64,000 bases of DNA from Planctomycetota bacterium (GTDB lineage Bacteria > Planctomycetota > UBA1135 > UBA2386). The stretch covers positions 7,072,001 through 7,136,000 of the forward strand of contig OZ245838.1 of NCBI GenBank assembly GCA_965228735.1, in the 5' to 3' direction. Position 1 is the first letter of the stretch. Each line of letters opens with the position of its first letter. Positions 14,978-35,295 of the stretch are shown here, one piece after another. The notes beneath the pieces were generated by a model. The model was not told the origin of the DNA and ran no database searches. It saw only the letters and a program-made list of their open reading frames with translations. Made by a program: the position numbers and the translations under genes.

Positions 14978-16198
14978 CTACTTCGCGGCGGTCTCGACGC
15001 GGCGCAGCGCGATCCCGAGCGGCTTCGGCCCCGGATCACGGTTGCGCTGGTTGAAGCGCCACGCACCGCGCCGTTCGCCGACGGCGACGAGCTCGAAGCT
15101 CTCGAAGTCGCCCGTCTTGCTGTGCCAGCGTGACCGGCCGTAGAGCGTGGCGCGGTAGCCTTGCTGGCCGGCGTCCATCACGGCCTCGCCGCGATACTCG
15201 ATCGTCCAGACCGAGCGCTCGACCGCCGTTCGTTGCATGGTCAGGGTCGCGGTCTCGATGTGCTGCTCGCGCCAATGCGGCGCCTGGCCGCGAACGTTGT
15301 CGACGAGCACCTCGCGATAGAGCCGTCGCACGACCTCGTCGTCGACCGGTCGGGGTTTCTTGCTCTTCGTCACGAACACCTTTGGGTCGTCGAACGCGAT
15401 CCAGTTGCGGTTCCAGGCCCACTTCACGAACTCGGTCCAGTTGCGGTCGTCGAAGCGGTTGCGCTGATATCGGCGCACGGACTCGGGGTCGTCCATGCTC
15501 GCGAGGTCGCGCAATGAAACGGCGAATGCGAGCGCCTTGCCCTCGATGTCGGGCGGCATCACCCGGTCGGCGACCGGCACGGGCGCGTTCTCGTAGCCGC
15601 GCCGCTGGCGCAGCTTCTGCCAGCGCTGCAGCGCCCGGCGCAGGCGCTCGCGCATGTCCTCGCGGTCACCGCCGGCTGCGAACCGCCCTTCGAGATACTC
15701 GGCGTCGGGGCCGATCATGTAGATGCCCTGTTTGGTTCCCGGGTGGTTCCAGTCACCTTCGGGCATCGACTCGCCGTACTTGCGGAAGAAGCGGTGGGTC
15801 GGATCGTTCGCGATCCGCTGCACGTGCTGCGGGTTCTCGGGGTAGAGCCCGTAGGCCTCGTCGGCGACGGTGACGAACTCTCGGCTGAGCTTCTGGATCT
15901 CCGGGTCTGACCAGACCAGTTGGCGTCCGCGGACGCCGTTGTTTCAAGTGCAGCCGAGCGGGTGGCCGTTCATCGTCCAGAGCAGGATCGGGCGACCGAG
16001 CTCTCTGGCCTCCGCGATCGCCGGGCCGAGCCGGTTGCGCCAGCCGACCTGCTGGAACGACAGCTCGAGCTCGTCGGGCTCGATGGCCTCGAGCCAGTCG
16101 TCGAGGTTCTTCGGTCCGAGGGTGGGCAGCTCGGTTTGCGCGATGCTCGGCGATGCCAACGCGAACGCCAGCGCCACTGGCGACAGTGCGATCCTCAT
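14978..16198 (-). CDS. Putative secreted thioredoxin-like selenoprotein (GCTU motif; UGA at 15944-15946, codon 85)
   Basis: Signal peptide; VGWRNRLGPAIAEARELGRPILLWTMNGHPLGCT-TGA-NNGVRGRQLVWSDPEIQKLSREFVTVADE continues a thioredoxin-like pattern in frame into the 14978..15823 ORF; hairpins follow the UGA. Alternative start at ATG 16210. Confidence 0.8.
15904..15937 (-). promoter_or_regulatory. Candidate bacterial SECIS hairpins after UGA 15944
   Basis: mRNA: UGA-AACAAC-GGCGUC(CGCG)GACGCC-AACU-GGUCU(GGUC)AGACC. Confidence 0.55.
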
Positions 16199-20324: not shown

Positions 20325-23300
20325 TTACCGCACGACGAAGTCGCGTTCGATCTCGGTGCGGCTCGCCGGGATCGTGAGAGGTTGATCACGCAGCGGCTGA
20401 CCCATGCCACGTGAGATCGCGATCGTGTAGCTCGGGCCGCGGGTCAGCACGATGCGAAAGCGGCCGTCCTTGCCCGTGCTCTGCCAGCCGCTCACGGGGT
20501 GGAGTTCGAGCGTGCCGCCGTGCTGCGGCACGTGCGTTCGGCCGCCGACGATCGCGCTGCCGACCGGCTTCTTGGCATTGTCGATCGTGCGACCCGTGAC
20601 CGTGACCTCCTCGCGACCGACGTAGCGGCCGTCGCGGAACGGCACGAGGTCGATTCGCACCGGCGTCGGATCCCGGCTCGGCAGCGCATCGCAGCGGAAC
20701 CTTTGTTTTTCGAACGGATTCCGCACATGCACGTACCGAGCGTTCGGGTCGGCGTGGAACGTGAGCGCCTGTTCGCGGGCGTCGAGGCCCTCGGCGCGGA
20801 AGCGCCCCTCGGCATCCGTGCGCACGCTGACGGTCGTGCCGTCCTGCCCTTGCCCATTCACGTAGACCCGCCCGTTCGCCAGCGGCTCGCCCGCGACGGT
20901 TACGACGCCCGCTACGGCGAGTCCGGTCCAGCGCAGCGTGAAGACGTATCCCGGCTGCGCGTCCTTCGGCAGCTGCAGTGACCAGCGGCGGCCGTCCGGC
21001 GCGGTCACGTACAGGTAGGCCTCCGGCACGAGATCCAAGGGCACGCTGCCGTCCGCCCCGACGTCGACCGGCTCGTGATCGGGAAGCTGCGCCGCGGACG
21101 CGCGGGCGCGGAAGCCCTGGAACCCGCCATCGGGCCCTTCGCCGGCGAACGCGAGGAACGGGCGGATCGTCGGGTTGGCGGGAATCCGCAGTTCAACGAC
21201 AGGTCGTTCGCCGGCCGCGGCTTCGATGGTCTCGACGATCGCACCGACCCACGAGTGCTCGGCTGCCTGCCGCGGCGCAAAGACCTTGAGCTGGCCCGGG
21301 GCGAACGGGCCGAGTACGGCCTTGCCGGTGGCGTCGGTGCGGGCGCGCCGCTGCTGATGATCGACGGTTCCGATGGCGACGTTGTGATCGGCGCGCGGCT
21401 TGCCGTCCGGGCCGACGACGTGGACCTCGACGTGCACGGCGCCCGCGAGGTCGATCACGCGGTCGTCGTCGTCAGCCGCCACCGCTACCGCGAACTGCGC
21501 TTCGCAGAGCTCGCCGACGAACACCTCGCACAGGTAGTTGCCGGCCGGCGCCGTGAGCTCGAACTGGCCCTCGCTCGTCGTAGTCGCCGCGTCGATCACG
21601 CACTCGGTGTTGTGCTGCCAGTTGAGCTGATTGAACGGGCGCAGCTGCACGTTGGCGCCGGCTACCGGGTCCGTTCCACGCACGACGCGGCCCGCGAAAC
21701 GGGCCGGCGCGCCGGGTTCGAGCTGGACCTCGTGCGGCTGCAGGTCGGCGCCGAAGAGCTCGATGCGTTGCAGGACCGCCGGCCGATACCCGTCGGCCCA
21801 CACCGTGACATCGAGCTGACTCGGAAACACACCGCGATGCTCCCGCGGCATCTCGAGCACCTGCTGCGCCCGGAACGGCGCGAGCGCGAACCAGCCGTCC
21901 TCGGCGTGGAACGTGCCGGTGTGTCGCGGCGTGCCGTTGTCGTCCGCCGAACGGATTCGGATCGTCTCGATCGGTCGCCCGGTCGCCTTGTCCGTGACAT
22001 GGATCCGCGCCCCGCCCCAACGCGTCACGTGCACGGTGCCCGCCTCGTCGGTCGACAGGCTCGTCGACGTGATCCAGCGTTGCCCGTTCTGCTTGATGAT
22101 GTTGCGGGTCACGGTCCACCCCGGCGTGAGGCACGTGACGCTGACGCTCGTTGCGCCGACCCGCGCCGTGAAGCGGCCCTTGCCGTCGGTCTCCGTGAAC
22201 CACTGGCCGCCCTCGCCTTCGAGTCGGAGCCGCAGCGGTTCGGGGACCAGTTGTTCGTGGTCGGTGAGCACGAACCCGACGAGCTCGCGCACGGGCCACA
22301 GGCTGATCGTGAGGGCCGCGTTCGTCGCGCCGTCCGTGCTCGTGGTCGAGCGGACCACGCCGAACCGCGGGCCAGAGGTTGGGTCACCCTCGAACGCGAA
22401 CCGGCGCGGCGCGCGGCCGTCGGCGCGGGCCTCGACCACGACGCCGGTCAGGGGGACCGGCAGTGCGCAGCGGCCGTCCGAGTCGGTCGTGCGGCGCAGC
22501 AGCGCTGGCTTGGTCTCGTCCCGAGGCGGCACGAGGAACGGGTGCTCGGCGCCGCGCAGCGTGACGTCGAGGGGCAGGTCCCGTGGGATGCGAACGGATT
22601 CGCCGAGGTCGTGGGGGATGCCGGTCGCACCCATCTGCGTGGTGCCGGCGAGCTCGCGCTGCAGCTCGAGCAGCGTGAGCTCGCGGGGGCCGAACAGCGC
22701 GAGGTCGGCGCCTTCGATCGGCTGTCTCGTCACGCCGTCGATCACCTGCACGTCGAGAGTCCAGGCCGCTTCGACGACGGCATCGACGACGGGGGCGGCG
22801 ACGCGCTCGGCGGCCGCGGGTGTCACGTTCCGGTCGCTGGCGCGCTTCGGCGTCGACGGCTCGACGGACGCCGGGGTGGGGGCGGGTGCCGCTACGTGAT
22901 CGGTCCGTGGCGTGTCGCTCTCGCCCGGCCACCAGGCCACGCCGAGAACGGTCACGCAGACGGCGACGAGCGCTGTGAGAACGACGGTTTGCTTGCTCAT
23001 GACGATTCCCAGAACGGTGATGCCGGCGCCCGTTGCGGCGACGGCGCCCGCGGCCGCCTTGGCCGCGGTGAGGCGCGCGCCGGCGGCGATGACCTCGGTG
23101 CGGATCGCGGCGAGCCCGCGCGTCGCGGTCATCGCGGTCGCGGCGAGGGCGGTGGCGAGTCCCGCCGGCAGCGCGCGCCGCGCCATCTCGAGGCCGCGGT
23201 GGATCTGCGAGCGCACGGTCGCCGGGCTGCGGTCGAGGACGAGCGCGATCTCGGCCGGCTCCATGCCGTGCACGAGGCGCAGCAGGGTCGGCTCGCGGAA

Positions 23301-23696
23301 CGGTTCGCGCAGGCGTTCGATCGCGTTGCGGGCCGTGTCCGACAGTTCGCGGTCCGCGACGCCGTCGGCCGGCTGCGGCTCAGTGCCCGAGACCTGATCG
23401 CCGTCCGCGCCGAGGTCGGGCGAGCGTCGACTGCGGCGACGCTCGCTCTTGGCCCGGTTGGTCAGGATCCCGGCAAGCCACGGCGTGACGGACCGCTTGC
23501 CCTCGAAGCGGTCGGCGCTCTCGATGGCGGCGAGGAACGTGTCCTGCAGCAGATCTTCGGCGGCGGCGACGTCGCGGGTCAGGTGCGACGCGAGGCGCAG
23601 CAGCTCCGGCGCGACCCGGTCGAACAGCTTCGCGAGGGCGTCGACCTGATCGCGGTCGCGCCAGCGCAGAAACAGTCGGGTCGCTCGGTCTCGCAT
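20325..23696 (-). CDS. ECF sigma-70 factor fused to a membrane helix and carboxypeptidase-regulatory-like repeats
   Basis: AEDLLQDTFL...PWLAGIL; LREPFRE...EIALVLDRSPATVRSQIHRG; TM VVLTALVAVCVTVLGVAWW; repeated beta-sandwich units. Confidence 0.88.
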   Translation of the reverse strand: MRDRATRLFLRWRDRDQVDALAKLFDRVAPELLRLASHLTRDVAAAEDLLQDTFLAAIESADRFEGKRSVTPWLAGILTNRAKSERRRSRRSPDLGADGDQVSGTEPQPADGVADRELSDTARNAIERLREPFREPTLLRLVHGMEPAEIALVLDRSPATVRSQIHRGLEMARRALPAGLATALAATAMTATRGLAAIRTEVIAAGARLTAAKAAAGAVAATGAGITVLGIVMSKQTVVLTALVAVCVTVLGVAWWPGESDTPRTDHVAAPAPTPASVEPSTPKRASDRNVTPAAAERVAAPVVDAVVEAAWTLDVQVIDGVTRQPIEGADLALFGPRELTLLELQRELAGTTQMGATGIPHDLGESVRIPRDLPLDVTLRGAEHPFLVPPRDETKPALLRRTTDSDGRCALPVPLTGVVVEARADGRAPRRFAFEGDPTSGPRFGVVRSTTSTDGATNAALTISLWPVRELVGFVLTDHEQLVPEPLRLRLEGEGGQWFTETDGKGRFTARVGATSVSVTCLTPGWTVTRNIIKQNGQRWITSTSLSTDEAGTVHVTRWGGARIHVTDKATGRPIETIRIRSADDNGTPRHTGTFHAEDGWFALAPFRAQQVLEMPREHRGVFPSQLDVTVWADGYRPAVLQRIELFGADLQPHEVQLEPGAPARFAGRVVRGTDPVAGANVQLRPFNQLNWQHNTECVIDAATTTSEGQFELTAPAGNYLCEVFVGELCEAQFAVAVAADDDDRVIDLAGAVHVEVHVVGPDGKPRADHNVAIGTVDHQQRRARTDATGKAVLGPFAPGQLKVFAPRQAAEHSWVGAIVETIEAAAGERPVVELRIPANPTIRPFLAFAGEGPDGGFQGFRARASAAQLPDHEPVDVGADGSVPLDLVPEAYLYVTAPDGRRWSLQLPKDAQPGYVFTLRWTGLAVAGVVTVAGEPLANGRVYVNGQGQDGTTVSVRTDAEGRFRAEGLDAREQALTFHADPNARYVHVRNPFEKQRFRCDALPSRDPTPVRIDLVPFRDGRYVGREEVTVTGRTIDNAKKPVGSAIVGGRTHVPQHGGTLELHPVSGWQSTGKDGRFRIVLTRGPSYTIAISRGMGQPLRDQPLTIPASRTEIERDFVVR

Positions 23697-27104: not shown

Positions 27105-28220
27105 ATGCCCCGTTCGCTCTTCACGCCGTTCGCCGCTGCCCTGTTTGCCACGACGGCTCTGACGCAGACGTTCGTCGTCGACGCCCAGAATGGCCCCGGC
27201 ACGAACTTCACGACCATCGCCGCTGCCGTCGGCGCCGTGCCCGATGGCGCGACGCTGATCGTGCGGCCAGGGATCTACACCGGATTCTCCGTCGTCCAGA
27301 AAGGCGTGAACGTGCTCGCGGATCCGGGCGTCCATGTCTACTCGGGCATCACGATTCTCGAGGTCGGACCGCAACAGAAGGTCGTCATTCGCGGGGTGGA
27401 GTGGGGCAACCCGACCGGGGTCGGAACGTTGGCCGTGCGCGATTGTCGCGGCCCCGTCCTCGTCGAGGACTGCGCGGGGACGCCGGCCAACGCGCCGTTC
27501 GGCGGGACGATCTCGATCCAGGCCAGTGACTCCGTGCACCTCGCGCGGACCCTGGTCGTCAGTCCCCTGTTCGAGCCGGTCGAGACGTCGGGCAGCGACG
27601 TGACGATCACCGACAGCCAGCTGCGCGGCCCGATCGGCCGCACCGGTCTGCAGCAGATCGGTGGCCGCACGCGGATCAGCAATACCTACGTCGAGGGCGC
27701 TGGGAGCGTGCTGCCCGCGTCGCCGACGAGCGTCGTCGGCATGCTCGGCGGCGAACTGACCCTCGACGGCGACTCGGCGCTCGTCGGTGCCGCGCCCGTC
27801 ATGGTCGGCATCGAAGGCAACGGGAACGCGATCGTCGACCCCGGCGCGACGATCCTCTCGACGAATCGGATCGGCGCCGGGATCACCGAGTTCTCGCGCG
27901 CGCTCGCGCGCTGCTCGGCGTCGACCGCGGCGCTCGGCGGCACGGCCACCGCCACGATCGAAGGCCCGTCCGGCAGCTTCGCGGTGGCGCTCGCGGGCTT
28001 CGTCGGCGCCGCGCAGAACGTGCCGGGACCGATGTATCCGCTGTGGATCGACCTCGGGACGATGATCCCGGTGGTCAGCGGCGTCACCCCGCTGACGTCG
28101 AGCTACACGGTGCCGAACGCGGCGTGGGTGCGCGGCATCACGTTCGGTTGGCAGGGTCTGGTCTACGACCAGACGAACGGACTGCAGCTCAGCAACCCGG
28201 GCATCTACACGCACTGGTAG
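27105..28220 (+). CDS. Secreted beta-helix-like protein with the shared terminal domain
   Basis: GGAGG RBS; signal peptide; FTTIAAAVGAVPDGATLIVRPGIY (pectin-lyase-like start); C-terminal VPNAAWVRGITFGWQ...LSNP. Confidence 0.8.
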   Translation: MPRSLFTPFAAALFATTALTQTFVVDAQNGPGTNFTTIAAAVGAVPDGATLIVRPGIYTGFSVVQKGVNVLADPGVHVYSGITILEVGPQQKVVIRGVEWGNPTGVGTLAVRDCRGPVLVEDCAGTPANAPFGGTISIQASDSVHLARTLVVSPLFEPVETSGSDVTITDSQLRGPIGRTGLQQIGGRTRISNTYVEGAGSVLPASPTSVVGMLGGELTLDGDSALVGAAPVMVGIEGNGNAIVDPGATILSTNRIGAGITEFSRALARCSASTAALGGTATATIEGPSGSFAVALAGFVGAAQNVPGPMYPLWIDLGTMIPVVSGVTPLTSSYTVPNAAWVRGITFGWQGLVYDQTNGLQLSNPGIYTHW

Positions 28221-28269
28221 GAGCGTGCGCGAGCGCCGCGGGTCGCGGCAGTGGCCCGCGACCCGGCTG

Positions 28270-29076
28270 CTACTTGCCGTTCTTCTTGCCTGCTTCCGCG
28301 CGCTTGTTCTTCAGGTAGGCGCGCCAGTACTTGCGGTACTTCTGCGGCACCTTCGGCGTGCTGCCGCGGTGCTTCAGTGAGTTGAGGTAGGGCTGCAGCT
28401 CACCCCAGGTCTCCGCGCCCTCACCCGGGCGGCCCGGGCCGGTGGCGTTCTCGGGCGGGTTGGTGCCGCGACGGTTCGCGCCGCGCGCGTCGCGTTCGTT
28501 GCCGTCCGCGGGTTGGCTCGCCTGCTGCTCGTCACCCTGTTCGGTCGGATCGCCCGTCGGCTGGCGGAGATCCTGCTTCGCGAACTCGGGCGTGCTGGAC
28601 TCGCGGCGGTTCTGCGGCGAGCGCTGCGACGCCGCGCCAGTCGCCTTCGAACCCGGCTCGTTCTCGCCGCGACCGCTCTGGTCTCGGCCATTCTGACGTT
28701 GCGACGAGTTGTTCTGGCCGGACCGGCCAGAGCCACCGCCGCTTCAATTGCCGCACTGGTCCTTCAGCTCGTGCAGCTTCTCGATGAGGCGGTCGATGCC
28801 ATCGGCAGCGGCCTTGCTGCCGTCCATCGAACGCGCGAGCTTGTCCTTCGACGTCGTGCGGCCGCTCTGTGACGCGCTCGACTCGAGGAGCATGCGGTCG
28901 ACGTCTTCGAGCTGCTCGGTGACCTCACGCGCGATCTCCTGGATCTGCCGCATGGTGTCGGACGTGGTCGGAGCGGTGCTTGCGTCTTGCGCGGTGAGCC
29001 GGGCTGGGCAGAACAGCAGCGTGGCGAACGCCAAAGCGATCGGTGCCGCGAATCGTCTCGGGTCAGGGCCGGTCAT
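28270..29076 (-). CDS. Putative exported selenoprotein of unknown family with CxxU (CGNU; UGA at 28744-28746, codon 111)
   Basis: AAGGAG RBS, signal peptide and helical region ending LHELKDQCGN-TGA; then 157 more sense codons in frame (SGGGSGRSGQ...WGELQPYLNSLK...VPQKYRKYWRAYLK...GK-TAG) with no usable internal start; strong hairpin 12 nt after the UGA. Confidence 0.72.
28713..28731 (-). promoter_or_regulatory. Candidate bacterial SECIS hairpin after UGA 28744
   Basis: Perfect inverted repeat UCUGGCCGG-U-CCGGCCAGA giving a G-initiated (G)GUC(C) loop about 20 nt after the UGA. Confidence 0.65.
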
Positions 29077-29172
29077 CGTCCATCTCCTTGGTGGTGACCA
29101 GTGCGGGGTGCCAGAGTCTTGGGGTGAGCAACAGAGGATACGGCATGGCGGGGCAGCCGTCGACCGGGTCGG

Positions 29173-31620
29173 CTACCGCAGGTCCACCCGCGCCTCGGGC
29201 GCCTTCAGGCTCTCGGGAATCGTCATGTCGGTCTCGCCCCGCAAGCCGTCGTCGGTCCAGAACTCGAGGTGGTAGCGGCCCGGCGCGAGCGTGTAGCTCA
29301 GCTCGTAGGGTCGCAGCGGCGAGGTGTAGAGCTTGCCCTCGTACTCGCGCGCGATCCGGCCGGTCGCGTCGGTGAAGCGGTAGCCGCGCGTCTTCGACTT
29401 CGACTGGCCCTCGGGCCACCAGATCGCGACCTTGCCGATCGCGCCGGCGCGCAGGTCGAACGTCGCGTCCGTGGTCTGGCCGGCGACGACCGTCGCGCTG
29501 CCGCTGAGCGCGACCATGCCCTTGAAGTAGGCGGTGATCTTGTAGTCGCCCGGCGTGAGGCTCGCGGCGACGATCTCGCTCTTGCGGCCGATCTCGACCC
29601 GCGTGCCGAGGGCATCACCGTCGCGACGCAGGTAGAAGTTCGGTTCGAACTCCGTCGCCCGCGCGTCCCGGTTCACGAGCACGCGCAGGCTGCCGCCCGT
29701 CTCCGTCGCGAGCACGCCGGTGTCGACGTCGCCGCCCGGCGGCAGCTCGTGCCAATCCGACGACGCGAGCACCGTCTCGCCCTCCTTGAGAATGACGCGG
29801 AACTTGCACGGCTTCACGTCTTCGACGCGGAACGCGCCGTTCTCGATCTTGACGCCCGGCCGGAACCACCCCGCGTCGGAGTTGATCGTGACCGTCACGT
29901 TGTTGGGGTTCTGGATCCGCGCGCCGGAGTCCGCGATGCGGCCGCTGACCGTGCCCGTCGCCTGCTTGACCGGTTTGTCGTAGTCGACCGTGAACTCGAC
30001 GATGCCCTGGTCCGGGACGACGCCGCTGCGTCGCGGCGCGGTGTTGCCCTTCGGTGCGTCGAACGGCGGCTGCACGCGCACCTCGTAGACGGAGGGCTCG
30101 AGGCAGAGGAACCGGAACGTGCCGTCCTTACTGCTGTTGATCGTGTGCTTTTCGCCGCTGCGCTCGTCCTGCAGCGTGACGAACAGATACGGGATCGGGT
30201 GGCCGTCGCGATACCGCACGATGCCGCTGATCGTGCGGCCCGGATCGATGACCGGGTCCCACTGCACGTCGCTGCCGGGCTCGACCGTCAGCGTCTCACG
30301 CGCGAGCGCGACCGAGATGCCGTCGCGGCCGCTGTGCTGCCGTTGCGCGAACATCCAGACCTCGCCCGGGGTGACGTTCTCGATCCGATAGCGCCCGTTC
30401 TCGTCGGTGATCGCCTGCAGGCCGCCGAACGTCTCGTCGAAGTCGATCTGCCCGCCGGCGAGGAAGCTCGTCCCCGGTTCGCGGTCGTATGCCGACACGG
30501 TGGCCCCGACCTCGGGCTCGCCCTTCTCGTTCTTCACGTGGCCGTGGACGATCGCGCCGCTCGACAGCTCGATGTCGAGCGTCGTGGTCGCTGCCGCGAC
30601 GACCTTGGCCTCGCCGCGCCAGATGCCGAACCCGGGAGCGCGCGCGGTGAGCGGCGTCGTTCCGGTGCGCAGTCCGATGAGCGTGTAGCGCCCGTTGCTG
30701 TCGGTCTCGACCGTGCGGATCGACCACGCCTCGATGAAGCGGCCGCCTTCGTAGTCGAGGTTGCGCGGGCGCTTGCCGGCCGCGACCTGGGCGCCGGCGA
30801 TCGGTTCGCCTTTCGAATCCGTGACGATGCCCGTGAGCCCGCCGCCGCCCGGGCGCAGCTGCAGATCGACGCGGGCCGGCATCGAGCTCACGTCGACGAT
30901 GTCGAGGTCGACGAGTGCGGACGGCGCGAAGCCGCGCCCGATCGCGCCGAGCGAGCACCCGGGCGGCAGGTCCACGAGCTCGAACTTGCCGGTCTCGTCC
31001 GAGTGTCCGAGAACGCGCGCGCCTTCCCACGACGTGCGCGCCGTCTGCAGCCAGATCTCGGCGTTCGCCACCGGCCTGTTGCGCGGGTCGGTCACCATGC
31101 CGGTGACGTCGACTCCGGGCTTGACCTCGAACTCGAACTCGTTGAGGCCGGGCTCGACCGTCAGGCTCTTCTGATCGCGCCGTTCCGTCGACAGGTAGTA
31201 CTTGCCCGGCGTGAGGCCGGCGAACTCGGCGCGGCCGTGCTCGTCGGTCGTGCCAAGCGCGGAAGACCGCGAGATCCGGTTGCCGCGCATGCGCTGCACT
31301 CGGATCTTGACGTTGCGCACGATCGCGCCGCCTTCTTTCGAAACCGTCGTGACGCGCAGCAGCGCTTCACCGTCAGCGATCTCGGGCTCGCCGTCACCCG
31401 TCGCCGTCGCTTCCGTCCGCAGTTCGTTGCTGGCCGGTTGCGGCGCTTCGTCGACGTCGGTCGCGGCGAGCTCGCCGTCCGAGGTGTCGGCGGTGAGGTT
31501 CGTCTCCGGCGCGTTCGGGGTCGGCGCCGGCGCGGCGTCACCGCGAGACCAGAACAACCAGATGGCGCCGGCCACGGCAGCGAGCAGCAGCGCGACGACG
31601 GGGAGCTTCGATCGGGGCAT
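29173..31620 (-). CDS. Membrane-anchored carboxypeptidase-regulatory-like repeat protein
   Basis: GGAGG RBS before ATG 31620; N-terminal TM, Pro/Ala/Thr linker, then repeated beta-sandwich units. Confidence 0.85.
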   Translation of the reverse strand: MPRSKLPVVALLLAAVAGAIWLFWSRGDAAPAPTPNAPETNLTADTSDGELAATDVDEAPQPASNELRTEATATGDGEPEIADGEALLRVTTVSKEGGAIVRNVKIRVQRMRGNRISRSSALGTTDEHGRAEFAGLTPGKYYLSTERRDQKSLTVEPGLNEFEFEVKPGVDVTGMVTDPRNRPVANAEIWLQTARTSWEGARVLGHSDETGKFELVDLPPGCSLGAIGRGFAPSALVDLDIVDVSSMPARVDLQLRPGGGGLTGIVTDSKGEPIAGAQVAAGKRPRNLDYEGGRFIEAWSIRTVETDSNGRYTLIGLRTGTTPLTARAPGFGIWRGEAKVVAAATTTLDIELSSGAIVHGHVKNEKGEPEVGATVSAYDREPGTSFLAGGQIDFDETFGGLQAITDENGRYRIENVTPGEVWMFAQRQHSGRDGISVALARETLTVEPGSDVQWDPVIDPGRTISGIVRYRDGHPIPYLFVTLQDERSGEKHTINSSKDGTFRFLCLEPSVYEVRVQPPFDAPKGNTAPRRSGVVPDQGIVEFTVDYDKPVKQATGTVSGRIADSGARIQNPNNVTVTINSDAGWFRPGVKIENGAFRVEDVKPCKFRVILKEGETVLASSDWHELPPGGDVDTGVLATETGGSLRVLVNRDARATEFEPNFYLRRDGDALGTRVEIGRKSEIVAASLTPGDYKITAYFKGMVALSGSATVVAGQTTDATFDLRAGAIGKVAIWWPEGQSKSKTRGYRFTDATGRIAREYEGKLYTSPLRPYELSYTLAPGRYHLEFWTDDGLRGETDMTIPESLKAPEARVDLR

Positions 31621-31845: not shown

Positions 31846-34800
31846 TCAGCGATCCCAGTCGGCCGGCAGTCGGATTTCGATCTCGGCGGCTTCGTGCTCG
31901 GTGAACGAGATGGGCGGGAGGGTCACGAACATCCGTTCGCGCGCGGCCAGATCGTCGAAGTGCGCGATGAGGTGCTCCCGAAAAGCCGCCTCATCCTGCA
32001 GGCTGCGAACCCGAACGCGCGGGACCGCGAGCCCGGGCGTCGACGTGATCGCGGTGCGGCCGTCGTCATCCGTGGGTTCGTGCGCGCTGGTCAGCGCAGC
32101 CCCATCGCGCAAGAACGTCAGCTTGGCGCCTGCGAGTGGGCTGCCGTCCGGGGTTAGCACCCGGACCCTCGCCGTTCCGAGGCGCACATCGAAGTCCGCC
32201 GTCGTGATCTGCCCGGACGCGACCGTTGCCTGCGCGCTCGAGTAGGCGCGCAGTCCGACGTCCCCGATGCGAACCCACGGGCCGGCTCGCCAGGTGCCGG
32301 CCGGCAACAGAATCCGGTATCGCCCGTCCCCGTCCGACTGCGCGTAGCGCGTCTCCCGGCGCGGTGAACCGTCGGCGAGAACGCCGTCGATGGCAGCGAA
32401 CTCGACCTGGCCCGTCAGTGGCTTGCCGGCGAGCGTGACCCGTCCTTCCATGCGTCCGAGTCGGTCCTGCGGACGGTTCAGCTCGATTTCCGCTTGCTCG
32501 GCGTCGCGTAGCGTGATTCCGGTGCGAACCGTTCTTCCGCTGTCGGTGAAGCTGCCGGGTCCGAAGGAGCGGTACGTCATGAGCTGCAGATCCCAGCGGC
32601 CGGGTGGGATCCCGCGCATTACGGCGACGCCATCATCATCGAACGAGAACGCTTCCTTGCTGCCCGACGGCGGAAAGTACACGGTGTCTCGTCCGGTGCC
32701 CTGTCGGAGGCGAATCGCGGGGTAACGGGCGCGGTCCTTCTCGGAGACGGGGCCAGCGCGCGGCATGCCGGCCTGCTCCCGGAGATCGGCGAGGAGTTCG
32801 AGGGGGCGCAACGTGACGCGGAGCGCCGCGCCGGCGTGCACCGTGGCGAAGATCGGTTCCGCGCTGAGTCGAATCCCGGTCAGGACGAGCGGATCGTGCG
32901 GGCCGGTGATGCGCAGGCAGTACTCCCGGTCGGGGTCGCCTGCCAGCTTGCAACGACCGTTCGGGGCGCTCTGGGAGTCGACGAGAAGCGCCCGGTCGCG
33001 GGTCTGCCTGTTCCAACGATCGATCGCGAGGGCGCGGGTCTCGAACGTGACGGGCGAGCCGGGGATCGGCGCGAGGAGTTCGACTTTGCTGCCGACCGAT
33101 GGCTCGCCGTCCGCGAACTGCACGTGCACCTGCTGGCGAACTGCATCCTGTAGTTCGACCTGCACGGCGTTCGGCACGTCGCGAGAGAGGTTGACCTCGA
33201 GCGGGCCGAAGACCGCGAGGCCGGACTTCGTGATCGGCTCGACGACGAGCCAGTAGGCGCCCGGTGGGAACCCCACGACCTCTGCCACCCCGCCGCTGTG
33301 CTCCCAACCGCCGCGGACGCGGGTATCCAGGGGCGAGGACCGGCTCGAAGCTCCGGGCTTCTGGAACACGCGCAGTCCGAACTGCTCGACGGCGGCTCCG
33401 TCGCGTGCCCGTGTTGCGTGAACCCGGAGACTCGCGCCTGCTCGCAGCACCAGCCGGACGGGGTTGTCACCCCAGTCATGCTGTGCCTCGCTCGTCAGCC
33501 TCTCGTAGCTGTCGTGCTCCACTTCGAGGTGGAACGGGCCGCTCGGACGATCCGAAGAACGGTGCTGCAGCGTGAAGGCGCCGTCGCGCTTCGTGCGCGT
33601 CGAGGCCCCGCTACCAATCTCCCACGCGGGCCGCACGGTCGCGTTGTGCACGGGTCGGCCGGCTTCGTCGACGACGATCCCGCGCAGGGTCGGGATGTCG
33701 TGTGCTCGCTCGACGGTGAGGTCGAGTTGCTTGCGAGGCAGCGCCAGTGTGGTCACCACTGGTTCGTCCGCGAGGCGCGCGCCGTCGAGCTTGACCTCCC
33801 ACGAACCGGCCGCCAGGCGCGTAGTGACCTCGAACGTCCCGTCCTTCTTCGTGTAGCCGCTGCCGTACGTCATCGACCGGAGGCCGTCGGACGATCCGCG
33901 GTTGCCCGTTCGAATGAACCGAACCCGAATGCCCTCGCGAGGTGCGCCGTCGACATCGATCACTCGGCCGGCGACGTGAACGCCGGGCTCGAGGACGACG
34001 TCCGCGAAGTCCCTCGTCGTGCGCGGCGCGATCGAACTCCATCGTCCGTAGGTTTCGGTGAACCCGTCGCAGTTCAGCGAGAGCGTGAACTGATGCGACG
34101 ACGGTGGATCGAACCGCACTTCGAAGCGGCCGTCGGGGCCGGTGATTGACGGTTCCGGGTCCTGCCAGTCGACGGGTCCATGATCACGGATGTGCGCGTT
34201 GAGGCGTTCGTCGTTCGCGGCCCAACCGTGCAGCTCCACGCGCACGCCAGCGACGGCGTCGCCGGTCGCATCGACGCAGCGTCCGCGCAGGGTGGCTTCG
34301 TTCGTCCTGGGAGCGATCGCCGGTGCGACGACCGGGTCGCGTTCGAAGCGCTGTTGATCCCCATGACCCGCGACGGGGTCCGTGACCGCAATTGTTCGGT
34401 TCGTCGAGGGGTTGGTGCCGGCAGCGATTCCCGCGGTGCGGTCGTGAGCCGCGGTGGTCCCGTTCGCGTTCGGTGGGTCAGGTTGCATCGCAACCCACCA
34501 CGCACCGGCAGCGCAGGCGATGGTCAGACCGGCAATGGCGAGGTTCTTCATGAGCAGTCCTCCGGCGATCGTGGCGGCGGTTCCGGCCGCCAGGTTCGTT
34601 GCCGCCGCGCTTGCACTGCCGGTCGCGACGCCAGCCGGCACCGCGATGGGCCTGCCGCCGGCGATCAACGGCACGAACGCCCCGGCCCAGTCGCGGCCGT
34701 GCCTCTTTCCGAGCGCCTGGCGCAGCTTCGCGAGTGCGCGCGACAACCGCTGTCGCACGGTCGCTTCCCGTTCGCCCGTGACCGCGGCGATGCGGGCGCA

Positions 34801-35220
34801 CGAGTGGCCATCGAGATAACGCGCGACGACGACGGAACGATACGGCTCCGGCAACGCCAAGACGGCGTCCGTGAGCTCCTTGTGCCGCTGCAGGCGGTCG
34901 ACGGCGTCCCCGGGTTCGGGGCCCGGATCCCGGTCGTGACTGGCACGCGCCTCGACGTCACGCCGGCGGGCGCGTCGGGCCCGCCACCGCGCGGCCTGAC
35001 GGCGGGTGACCTCGAACAGCCAACGGCGAATGCCAGCTGGCCCCTCGATCCGCGGCCGCCGATCCAGCGCGGCCGCGACGACGTCCTGCGTCACGTCATC
35101 GGCGTCCGAATCCGATCGGAGCAGCCGCAATGCGAGGGCCCGCACCCAGCCGTACTCGGCGAGGACGCGGTCTTCGAGGTTTGCGACATCGGCATCGGTG
35201 GAGCGGTCGGAGGCGGCCAT
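31846..35220 (-). CDS. ECF sigma-70 factor fused to a membrane helix and carboxypeptidase-regulatory-like repeats
   Basis: DADDVTQDV...RWLFEV; LPEPYRSVVVARYLDG...IAAVTGEREATVRQRLSRAL; TM LAIAGLTIACAAGAWWVA; repeats. Confidence 0.88.
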   Translation of the reverse strand: MAASDRSTDADVANLEDRVLAEYGWVRALALRLLRSDSDADDVTQDVVAAALDRRPRIEGPAGIRRWLFEVTRRQAARWRARRARRRDVEARASHDRDPGPEPGDAVDRLQRHKELTDAVLALPEPYRSVVVARYLDGHSCARIAAVTGEREATVRQRLSRALAKLRQALGKRHGRDWAGAFVPLIAGGRPIAVPAGVATGSASAAATNLAAGTAATIAGGLLMKNLAIAGLTIACAAGAWWVAMQPDPPNANGTTAAHDRTAGIAAGTNPSTNRTIAVTDPVAGHGDQQRFERDPVVAPAIAPRTNEATLRGRCVDATGDAVAGVRVELHGWAANDERLNAHIRDHGPVDWQDPEPSITGPDGRFEVRFDPPSSHQFTLSLNCDGFTETYGRWSSIAPRTTRDFADVVLEPGVHVAGRVIDVDGAPREGIRVRFIRTGNRGSSDGLRSMTYGSGYTKKDGTFEVTTRLAAGSWEVKLDGARLADEPVVTTLALPRKQLDLTVERAHDIPTLRGIVVDEAGRPVHNATVRPAWEIGSGASTRTKRDGAFTLQHRSSDRPSGPFHLEVEHDSYERLTSEAQHDWGDNPVRLVLRAGASLRVHATRARDGAAVEQFGLRVFQKPGASSRSSPLDTRVRGGWEHSGGVAEVVGFPPGAYWLVVEPITKSGLAVFGPLEVNLSRDVPNAVQVELQDAVRQQVHVQFADGEPSVGSKVELLAPIPGSPVTFETRALAIDRWNRQTRDRALLVDSQSAPNGRCKLAGDPDREYCLRITGPHDPLVLTGIRLSAEPIFATVHAGAALRVTLRPLELLADLREQAGMPRAGPVSEKDRARYPAIRLRQGTGRDTVYFPPSGSKEAFSFDDDGVAVMRGIPPGRWDLQLMTYRSFGPGSFTDSGRTVRTGITLRDAEQAEIELNRPQDRLGRMEGRVTLAGKPLTGQVEFAAIDGVLADGSPRRETRYAQSDGDGRYRILLPAGTWRAGPWVRIGDVGLRAYSSAQATVASGQITTADFDVRLGTARVRVLTPDGSPLAGAKLTFLRDGAALTSAHEPTDDDGRTAITSTPGLAVPRVRVRSLQDEAAFREHLIAHFDDLAARERMFVTLPPISFTEHEAAEIEIRLPADWDR

Positions 35221-35295
35221 TCGATCGGTATCTTCCTGGCGCACGGGTAGCGTGACAGGAATTCCGGATCAGGTCGTTGCCCGCATCGGTGCGAG

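Follow-up and report, generated by a model that had tools for sequence, protein, structure and literature searches.

In the window, which is the whole stretch of 64,000 nucleotides that was analysed, one reading frame is interrupted by a TGA codon behind the residues QCGN and continues in the same frame. This raises the question whether the codon is a true stop or encodes selenocysteine (Sec), and what a Sec residue would do in a protein of this type. Judged from the comparison of homologous genes, UGA111 is very probably read as Sec, with a probability of about 95%. A sequence-only reading of this DNA had proposed a CxxU selenoprotein candidate, and this core claim is supported by Sec/Cys exchanges between homologues, the clustering of these residues at one site, a SECIS-like hairpin and a conserved tail. 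In the following, G000 denotes the genome of this stretch, G001-G060 its relatives and G301-G395 the genomes of a phylum sample.

Gene structure and reading frame

The gene is located on the minus strand (29076→28270), which the sequence-only reading had not stated. It comprises an ATG at 29076, 110 codons, the TGA at 28746-28744 (codon 111), 157 sense codons and a TAG at 28272-28270 (Table 1), as had been described from the letters alone. Downstream of the UGA, the first and only start codon is a GTG at a distance of 132 codons, in agreement with the earlier remark that an early start is missing, and by its position this GTG is too late to yield the conserved tail. No promoter or terminator was found by a scan of positions 28000-29400 of the window.

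Table 1. Features of the gene, with positions in the window.
Feature	Position	Strand	Basis
Shine-Dalgarno-like AAGGAG	29084..29089	-	7 nt 5′ of the ATG; sequence
268-codon gene including one UGA read through	28270..29076	-	sequence; full-length homologues
Probable signal peptide	28990..29076	-	hydrophobic stretch; inferred cleavage A29|Q30
Predicted two-helix hairpin, residues 39-68 and 75-107	28756..28962	-	AlphaFold2 model
C108-G-N-U111 motif	28744..28755	-	sequence; homologues have TGA or TGC here
SECIS-like hairpin (stem of 7 bp starting at +13, GGUCC loop at +20 to +24)	28713..28731	-	folding, SECIS rule
Gly/Gln/Ser/Pro-rich linker, residues 112-215, predicted disordered	28432..28743	-	low pLDDT
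Conserved C-terminal WGxL...PxxYR...Y helix module	28273..28431	-	alignment A1; identity to G001 copy and paralogue

Downstream of the UGA, the codon score is +0.23 in the coding frame, whereas the two alternative frames score -0.59 and -0.45. The same TGA is present in contigs from four runs of four studies, with zero differences at the TGA, and in a diverged strain that shows 39 differences in 1101 nt, none of them within 28700-28767, and in which the real stop is changed from TAG to TAA. Due to this agreement, an assembly error was ruled out as the origin of the TGA. The strain variation behind the UGA consists of 13 synonymous (~113 sites) and 8 non-synonymous changes (~358 sites), i.e., a dN/dS of ~0.19. 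With a coding frame, a conserved tail and this ratio, the loss of conservation downstream that the sequence-only reading had named as evidence against Sec was not observed.

Protein anatomy

An AlphaFold2 model computed from a 32-row alignment (mean pLDDT 61, pTM 0.32) predicts helices at residues 39-68, 75-107, 228-235 and 245-265, with a linker of low confidence between the two pairs. The block pLDDT is 68-86 across residues 41-110 and mostly <50 in the linker, and C108 and U111 are located just past the end of predicted helix 2. The hydrophobic N-terminus, ending in a nearly invariant A29 and Q30 (alignments A1 and A2), suggests export. The predicted model and the sequence comparison thus support the original proposal of a Sec residue at the junction of helix and disorder in a probable envelope protein.

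W224, G225 and L227 are invariant in alignment A1. Residues 216-258 of the tail are identical at 37/43 positions to the Sec copy of G001 and at 38/43 to the Cys-free paralogue of G000 itself, vs. 35/70 in the hairpin region. This stronger conservation indicates that the tail, which can be made solely by readthrough, is under selection.

The query matches no Pfam family, and no NCBIfam HMM scores above its cut-off. Among 32 members scanned with NCBIfam, the single match was to an unrelated Gly-rich family (E 7e-4). A Foldseek search against the PDB gave no match at E<=0.001, and the non-significant matches were mostly helical hairpins and bundles. The ESM Atlas search with the Cys-free paralogue returned unnamed Planctomycetota clusters only; the nearest named cluster is DUF4175 at 0.78, which is a lead only. 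Homologues carrying names are hypothetical proteins of Planctomycetota. A model free of strands, a CxxU behind a helix end and the lack of a Pfam match agree with the earlier statement that the motif lies outside a thioredoxin fold.

The hairpin downstream of the UGA

The perfect 9-bp inverted repeat reported 12 nt past the UGA is present at 28731-28713 (+13 to +31). It encloses a 1-nt loop, and the plausible hairpin has a stem of 7 bp closed by the pentaloop GGUCC, so that the position given earlier stands and the stem length does not. The 91-nt region folds better than 200/200 shuffled sequences (z -3.55). In G001, the hairpin is found in register, with one G-C to A-U and one G-C to G-U change.

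For a wider comparison, a SECIS rule of our own (not bSECISearch) was applied, namely a stem of ≥5 bp and a G-containing loop of 4-5 nt that starts at +19 to +31. It fits the window hairpin and 17/18 last UGAs of the first family set, a score that is in-sample because the rule was set after this set was known. Out of sample, 15/24 and 6/8 last UGAs fit, compared with controls of 88/1746 ORF-ending TGAs (~5%), 53/892 TAA/TAG codons, 141/7920 codons of Sec-free members and 1/14 Cys codons. With a stricter rule, the values were 14/23 vs. 81/1746. The rule recovers 10/18 of the SelD and thioredoxin-like sites of G000 and misses 9/24 out-of-sample last UGAs as well as 8/9 first UGAs of pairs.

The covariation of the hairpin, which the sequence-only reading had proposed as a check, was found in 5/6 stem pairs, which show double changes among 26 aligned elements (structure chosen by the authors, related sequences not independent). 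In these elements 73% of the cells pair vs. 54% in shuffles; several rows of alignment A3, including G000 and G001, are shifted relative to the others and lower the support for the stem.

A nested arrangement was observed in nine genes with two UGAs (L053, L105, L106, L108, L109, L324, L327, L342, L346). The second UGA follows at +16 to +25 nt past the first. In 8/9 cases it is wholly unpaired and lies within the loop of the hairpin that follows the first UGA; a hairpin of its own is mostly present further downstream.

Homologues with Sec, Cys or neither

The first protein search yielded 29 full-length relatives, none of which (0/29) has a Cys at the Sec position. Taken alone, this would favour a nonsense codon, but six-frame genome searches reversed the picture. 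In the first six-frame sample, 45/61 genomes matched, seven of these with an internal TGA at the site, and the family profile matches 281/301 genomes of the order and 46/101 of the phylum sample. A class-level search yielded genomes of the same order only. Sec forms are present in eight genomes outside the order, all of which encode selA.

Of 191 genes obtained, 188 could be classified: 48 have TGA, 16 Cys only and 124 neither. As TGA cases were favoured in the choice of loci, these counts do not give prevalence. TAA or TAG breaks were found in none of the 188. The search for CxxC or CxxTGA homologues suggested earlier was therefore successful in part: 64/188 genes have Cys or UGA at the same position and the remainder neither, so that, by these sequences, a redox residue at this site is optional. 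Where present, it is strongly localized, as 55/56 Sec and 40/41 Cys residues fall 8-31 residues past the helix-2 motif, a segment that accounts for 21% of the linker codons. In a set of 150 database representatives (11 unparsable), 25 have a linker Cys, and 40/41 of these Cys residues are at the same place.

Exchanges between Sec and Cys occur within genera: G262, G246 and G208 have GGT-U where G144 has GGT-C, and G095 has two U at the places where G185 has Cys. CxxU as a family motif was not borne out. Among the 48 Sec genes, a lone U is found in 25, Ux6U in 4, Cx2U in 3, Ux2C in 3 and CU in 2, besides others; further spacings in the family are U-x5-8-U and U-x6-8-C. The number of redox residues per Sec/Cys gene is 1 to 3, and in the 36/64 genes with a single one no pairing within the chain is possible.

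A metagenome motif scan, which stopped before the codon in question and was thus blind to it, gave 22 loci, nine of them unrelated genes; the 13 family loci comprise 8 TGA, 3 Cys, 2 neither and 0 TAA/TAG. In a search with the N-terminal half, 46/49 short database matches end at the site, with GG[T/S/A]-like ends or CGN, where the 49 include a few genes of our own set and the ends were taken from proteins rather than stop codons. The DNA pattern CGN-U-SGG was also searched across genome contigs and discarded as too unspecific, since 0/120 loci fit the family profile.

Tandem pairs of family genes were observed at L052, L325, L331, L324, L386 and L387. In G053, G104, G142, G391 and G340, a Cys-free copy is paired with one that has Sec or Cys, and in G159 a Cys copy is next to a two-Sec copy.

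Sec machinery and other Sec sites

G000 encodes selA, selB, selD and a tRNA-Sec with the anticodon TCA, i.e., the gene set expected for a bacterial selenoprotein (selA, selB, selC, selD), and its selD itself has an in-frame TGA. In the first order sample, selA is present in 60/61 and selB in 59/61 genomes, so co-occurrence with the family does not discriminate and is necessary background only. In the phylum sample, 74/101 genomes encode selA (43/46 family-positive vs. 31/55 family-negative genomes, related genomes not being independent). The sampled Planctomycetota are broadly Sec-competent. TGA is the commonest stop codon of G000 (1586/2380), and a genetic code with UGA as Trp was rejected because of this and because homologues have Cys.

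A non-exhaustive codon-bias scan of G000 gave 56 candidate TGAs, 17 of which, picked by eye, are in thioredoxin-like or similar motifs. About 18 Sec sites appear likely in G000, including SelD, several thioredoxin/peroxiredoxin-like UxxC proteins and two FANW/AVPIT-U-C proteins with identical AGUUC hairpins. A second likely Sec codon of the window is located at 15946 on the minus strand (G000:C1:7087946) in the context WTMNGHPLGCT-TGA-NNGVRG, with a paralogue at C1:4855623. In G302 (L399) and G333 (L400), selA was found ~5 kb from a Cys-free family gene; as the intervening genes are unrelated, this proximity was taken as chance and not as a functional link.

Genomic context and origin

The Cys-free paralogue of G000 at C1:314.8 kb is the last gene of a MoxR-type operon with the order MoxR–DUF58–BatA–VWA/GATase-like–PQQ-propeller–squalene-cyclase-like toroid–786-aa membrane protein–978-aa helical protein–paralogue. 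All Cys/Sec-free genes with ≥700 nt of flank (52/52) are located directly behind the ~980-aa partner gene. This applies to 9/16 Sec genes with enough flank; the other 7/16, including the window copy, are outside the operon and may have left the complex. The window copy stands alone among unrelated genes, as does the G001 copy with different neighbours. In G020 and G032 (Sec) and G019 (Cys), no family gene follows the partner gene and a stand-alone copy is the only one found, which suggests action in trans. In G170, the partner gene was not found.

One database protein of 1204 aa, a single record, fuses the partner and the family domain. No conserved Cys was found in 10 partner copies checked. 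One partner copy shows a weak DUF4175 match below the cut-off, and the family protein has no match to DUF4175 (PF13779) above the Pfam gathering score.

In a quick tree, in which the trait columns were kept in the alignment and clades were not tested, the Sec copies of G000 and G001 group together (support 100) and next with Cys-free genes from their own genus (support 98), within a 35-row clade (support 99) without further U or C. This nesting suggests a young duplication followed by a gain of Sec. The window copy is thus likely, by sequence, a duplicate of the Cys-free terminal gene of the operon that gained its CxxU in the G000/G001 lineage. The other Sec genes are spread over several separate clades, and the nine label changes (U vs. 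C rows only) are no fewer than in shuffles.

A similar operon with large membrane and helical proteins was observed at L158:7586-15508 (G000:C1:4.48 Mb); its last gene encodes a Cys-free protein of 348 aa that shares the helix-linker-WG...PxxYR tail. In the window, a cluster of carboxypeptidase-regulatory repeat proteins, one of which ends 96 nt upstream of the gene, is flanked by two large ECF-sigma-like proteins that contain repeats of this type (20325-23696 and 31846-35244, minus strand; confirmed by Pfam for the latter).

Proposed function and alternatives

In the favoured reading, the gene product would be a small, likely exported subunit of a MoxR/VWA envelope complex of Planctomycetota. 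SelB, acting on the GGUCC-loop hairpin, would insert Sec at UGA111 and give a 268-aa protein with the conserved tail, which would be exported after cleavage at A|Q. The operon order and the one fusion suggest that the helical hairpin packs in a bundle with its own copies or with the ~980-aa partner, on which the WGxL tail would dock. C108 and U111 could form a selenylsulfide, members with a single U could link chains by Se-S or Se-Se, and the selenium bond would lock or release the assembly according to the periplasmic redox state. We tentatively favour such a reversible covalent redox latch (Se–S/Se–Se) on a helical-bundle subunit over a catalytic centre, at somewhat less than even odds, because there is no catalytic fold, the site is at the tip of a bundle helix, the 1-3 residues have free spacing and the compartment is likely oxidising. 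The latch would be dispensable, since 124/188 genes have neither Cys nor Sec. In Leptospira, deletion of bat genes gave no oxidative-stress phenotype (PMC3557215), which leaves the function of MoxR/VWA operons unsettled. Rather doubtful is the wider picture of a phylum-wide family in which Sec was repeatedly added at an empty site, interchain diselenide latches gate the MoxR/VWA machine and two-Sec members carry nested SECIS elements with the second UGA as loop.

Instead of a latch, the Cys/Sec cluster might be a soft-metal site (Cu, Hg, Zn or similar) that is built by the helical bundle and senses metal or passes it to MoxR/VWA. VWA domains bind metal, clusters of 2-3 thiols or selenols occur in the flexible segment (Ux4CC, Cx7Ux6U, CxxCxxC, HPHxxGTU) and a His is nearby in the HPH clade. 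As the spacing is unconserved, 36/64 genes have a single residue and metal-resistance genes were not seen beside the loci inspected, this is considered unlikely. A near-neutral or sacrificial Sec, exposed on an abundant envelope protein of very Sec-rich bacteria and serving there as antioxidant or to store selenium, would fit the optional residue, the ~18 other Sec candidates of G000 and Gly/Ser-rich linkers that are one mutation from TGA (TCA, GGA). It would, however, lead one to expect scatter over the ~100-aa linker, where 95/97 Sec/Cys residues sit in one segment, and the SECIS is kept by compensatory changes that alter amino acids; this explanation is quite unlikely.

The UGA could also act as a selenium-supply switch, with a 110-aa hairpin without tail at low selenium, the full subunit at sufficient selenium and a sharpened response with two UGAs. 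Its position exactly at the domain boundary, its recurrence across clades and classes, the tandem Sec and Cys-free copies (G053, G104, G142, G391) and the nested two-UGA genes agree with this. Against it, Cys occupies the same places in close orthologues or tandem copies (G144, G185, G340, G159), which leaves no switch there, and the additional Cys in CxxU/UxxC speaks for a chemical role. The Cys orthologues indicate selection on residue chemistry and not on a switch alone, and we regard this reading as quite unlikely, too. Very unlikely is a true stop caused by nonsense mutation, pseudogene formation or error, even though TGA is the main stop of G000, a Cys-free paralogue could make the copy redundant and 29/29 first homologues lack Cys at the site. 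It is contradicted by the same TGA in four studies and a diverged strain, the low dN/dS past the UGA, a tail 37/43 identical to G001 without usable start and 48 TGA genes vs. 0 with TAA/TAG.

Novelty and comparison with known systems

In the 119-family selenoprotein catalogue of 2026 (PMC13188914), neither the names nor the domains of the entries correspond to this family, and for the entries that have an NCBIfam model the HMM scans described above were negative as well. In the accessible text of deep-Sep (PMC12013277), SelCysML (PMC13745706) and Haft and Gwadz (10.1101/2022.07.06.499078), Planctomycetes are unmentioned. As far as the accessible descriptions go, BSepDB (PMC13326102) searches previously reported families only, and deep-Sep may miss selenoproteins without Cys homologues. 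A full-text literature search, with subscription journals mostly outside its coverage, found nothing on the family and no selenoprotein subunit described for MoxR-DUF58-BatA/VWA operons. The earlier suggestion of a new selenoprotein family is thereby strengthened: in terms of names, domains and NCBIfam HMMs, the family is new relative to the catalogues checked.

It would be a widespread selenoprotein family truncated by gene callers, as 46/49 short matches end at the site. Sec is usually regarded as a substitute for a catalytic Cys that is essential. Here, by contrast, Sec or Cys would be a dispensable addition to an exported structural protein, present in several separate clades, and as a redox or metal site it would offer a first chemical handle on the MoxR/VWA envelope operons, which are poorly understood. 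The window copy and its Cys-free paralogue form a natural pair for studying the rise of a Sec codon and SECIS inside a coding sequence. If Sec was indeed added at empty sites, families of this type escape methods that need mostly-Cys homologues, and many more may await discovery in the Sec-rich Planctomycetota.

Thioredoxin-fold CxxU/UxxC selenoproteins (SelW-like, Trx, Prx-like; PMC13188914) share with the family the in-frame UGA, the G-loop hairpin and Cys orthologues, and the loops GGUC, AGUUC, CGUGC and CGUGA of family hairpins also occur in the thioredoxin-like Sec candidates of G000. Unlike them, the family has no thioredoxin fold and no fixed motif, and most homologues lack a redox residue. 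AhpD/CMD-like CxxU selenoproteins (NF041047, NF041238, PF02627; PMC13188914) are all-helical with CxxU like the window protein, but they are enzymes with a conserved motif, whereas the family has CxxU in 3/48 Sec genes and no NCBIfam or Pfam match.

SaoP/SaoC/SaoX (10.1101/2022.07.06.499078) are described as non-oxidoreductase envelope proteins with Sec, as proposed here. For the SaoP dimer, an interchain diselenide or a metal site was proposed there, and SaoC carries a signal peptide, with Sec in only a minority of its members. As far as described in that source, Sec replaces an otherwise invariant Cys in the SAO system, whereas the site is usually empty in the present family; the two have no sequence match and differ in operon and hosts. 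With the MoxR-DUF58-BatA/VWA (Bat-like) operons the family is connected through its Cys-free paralogue, which ends one of them, whereas the window copy is located outside the operon.
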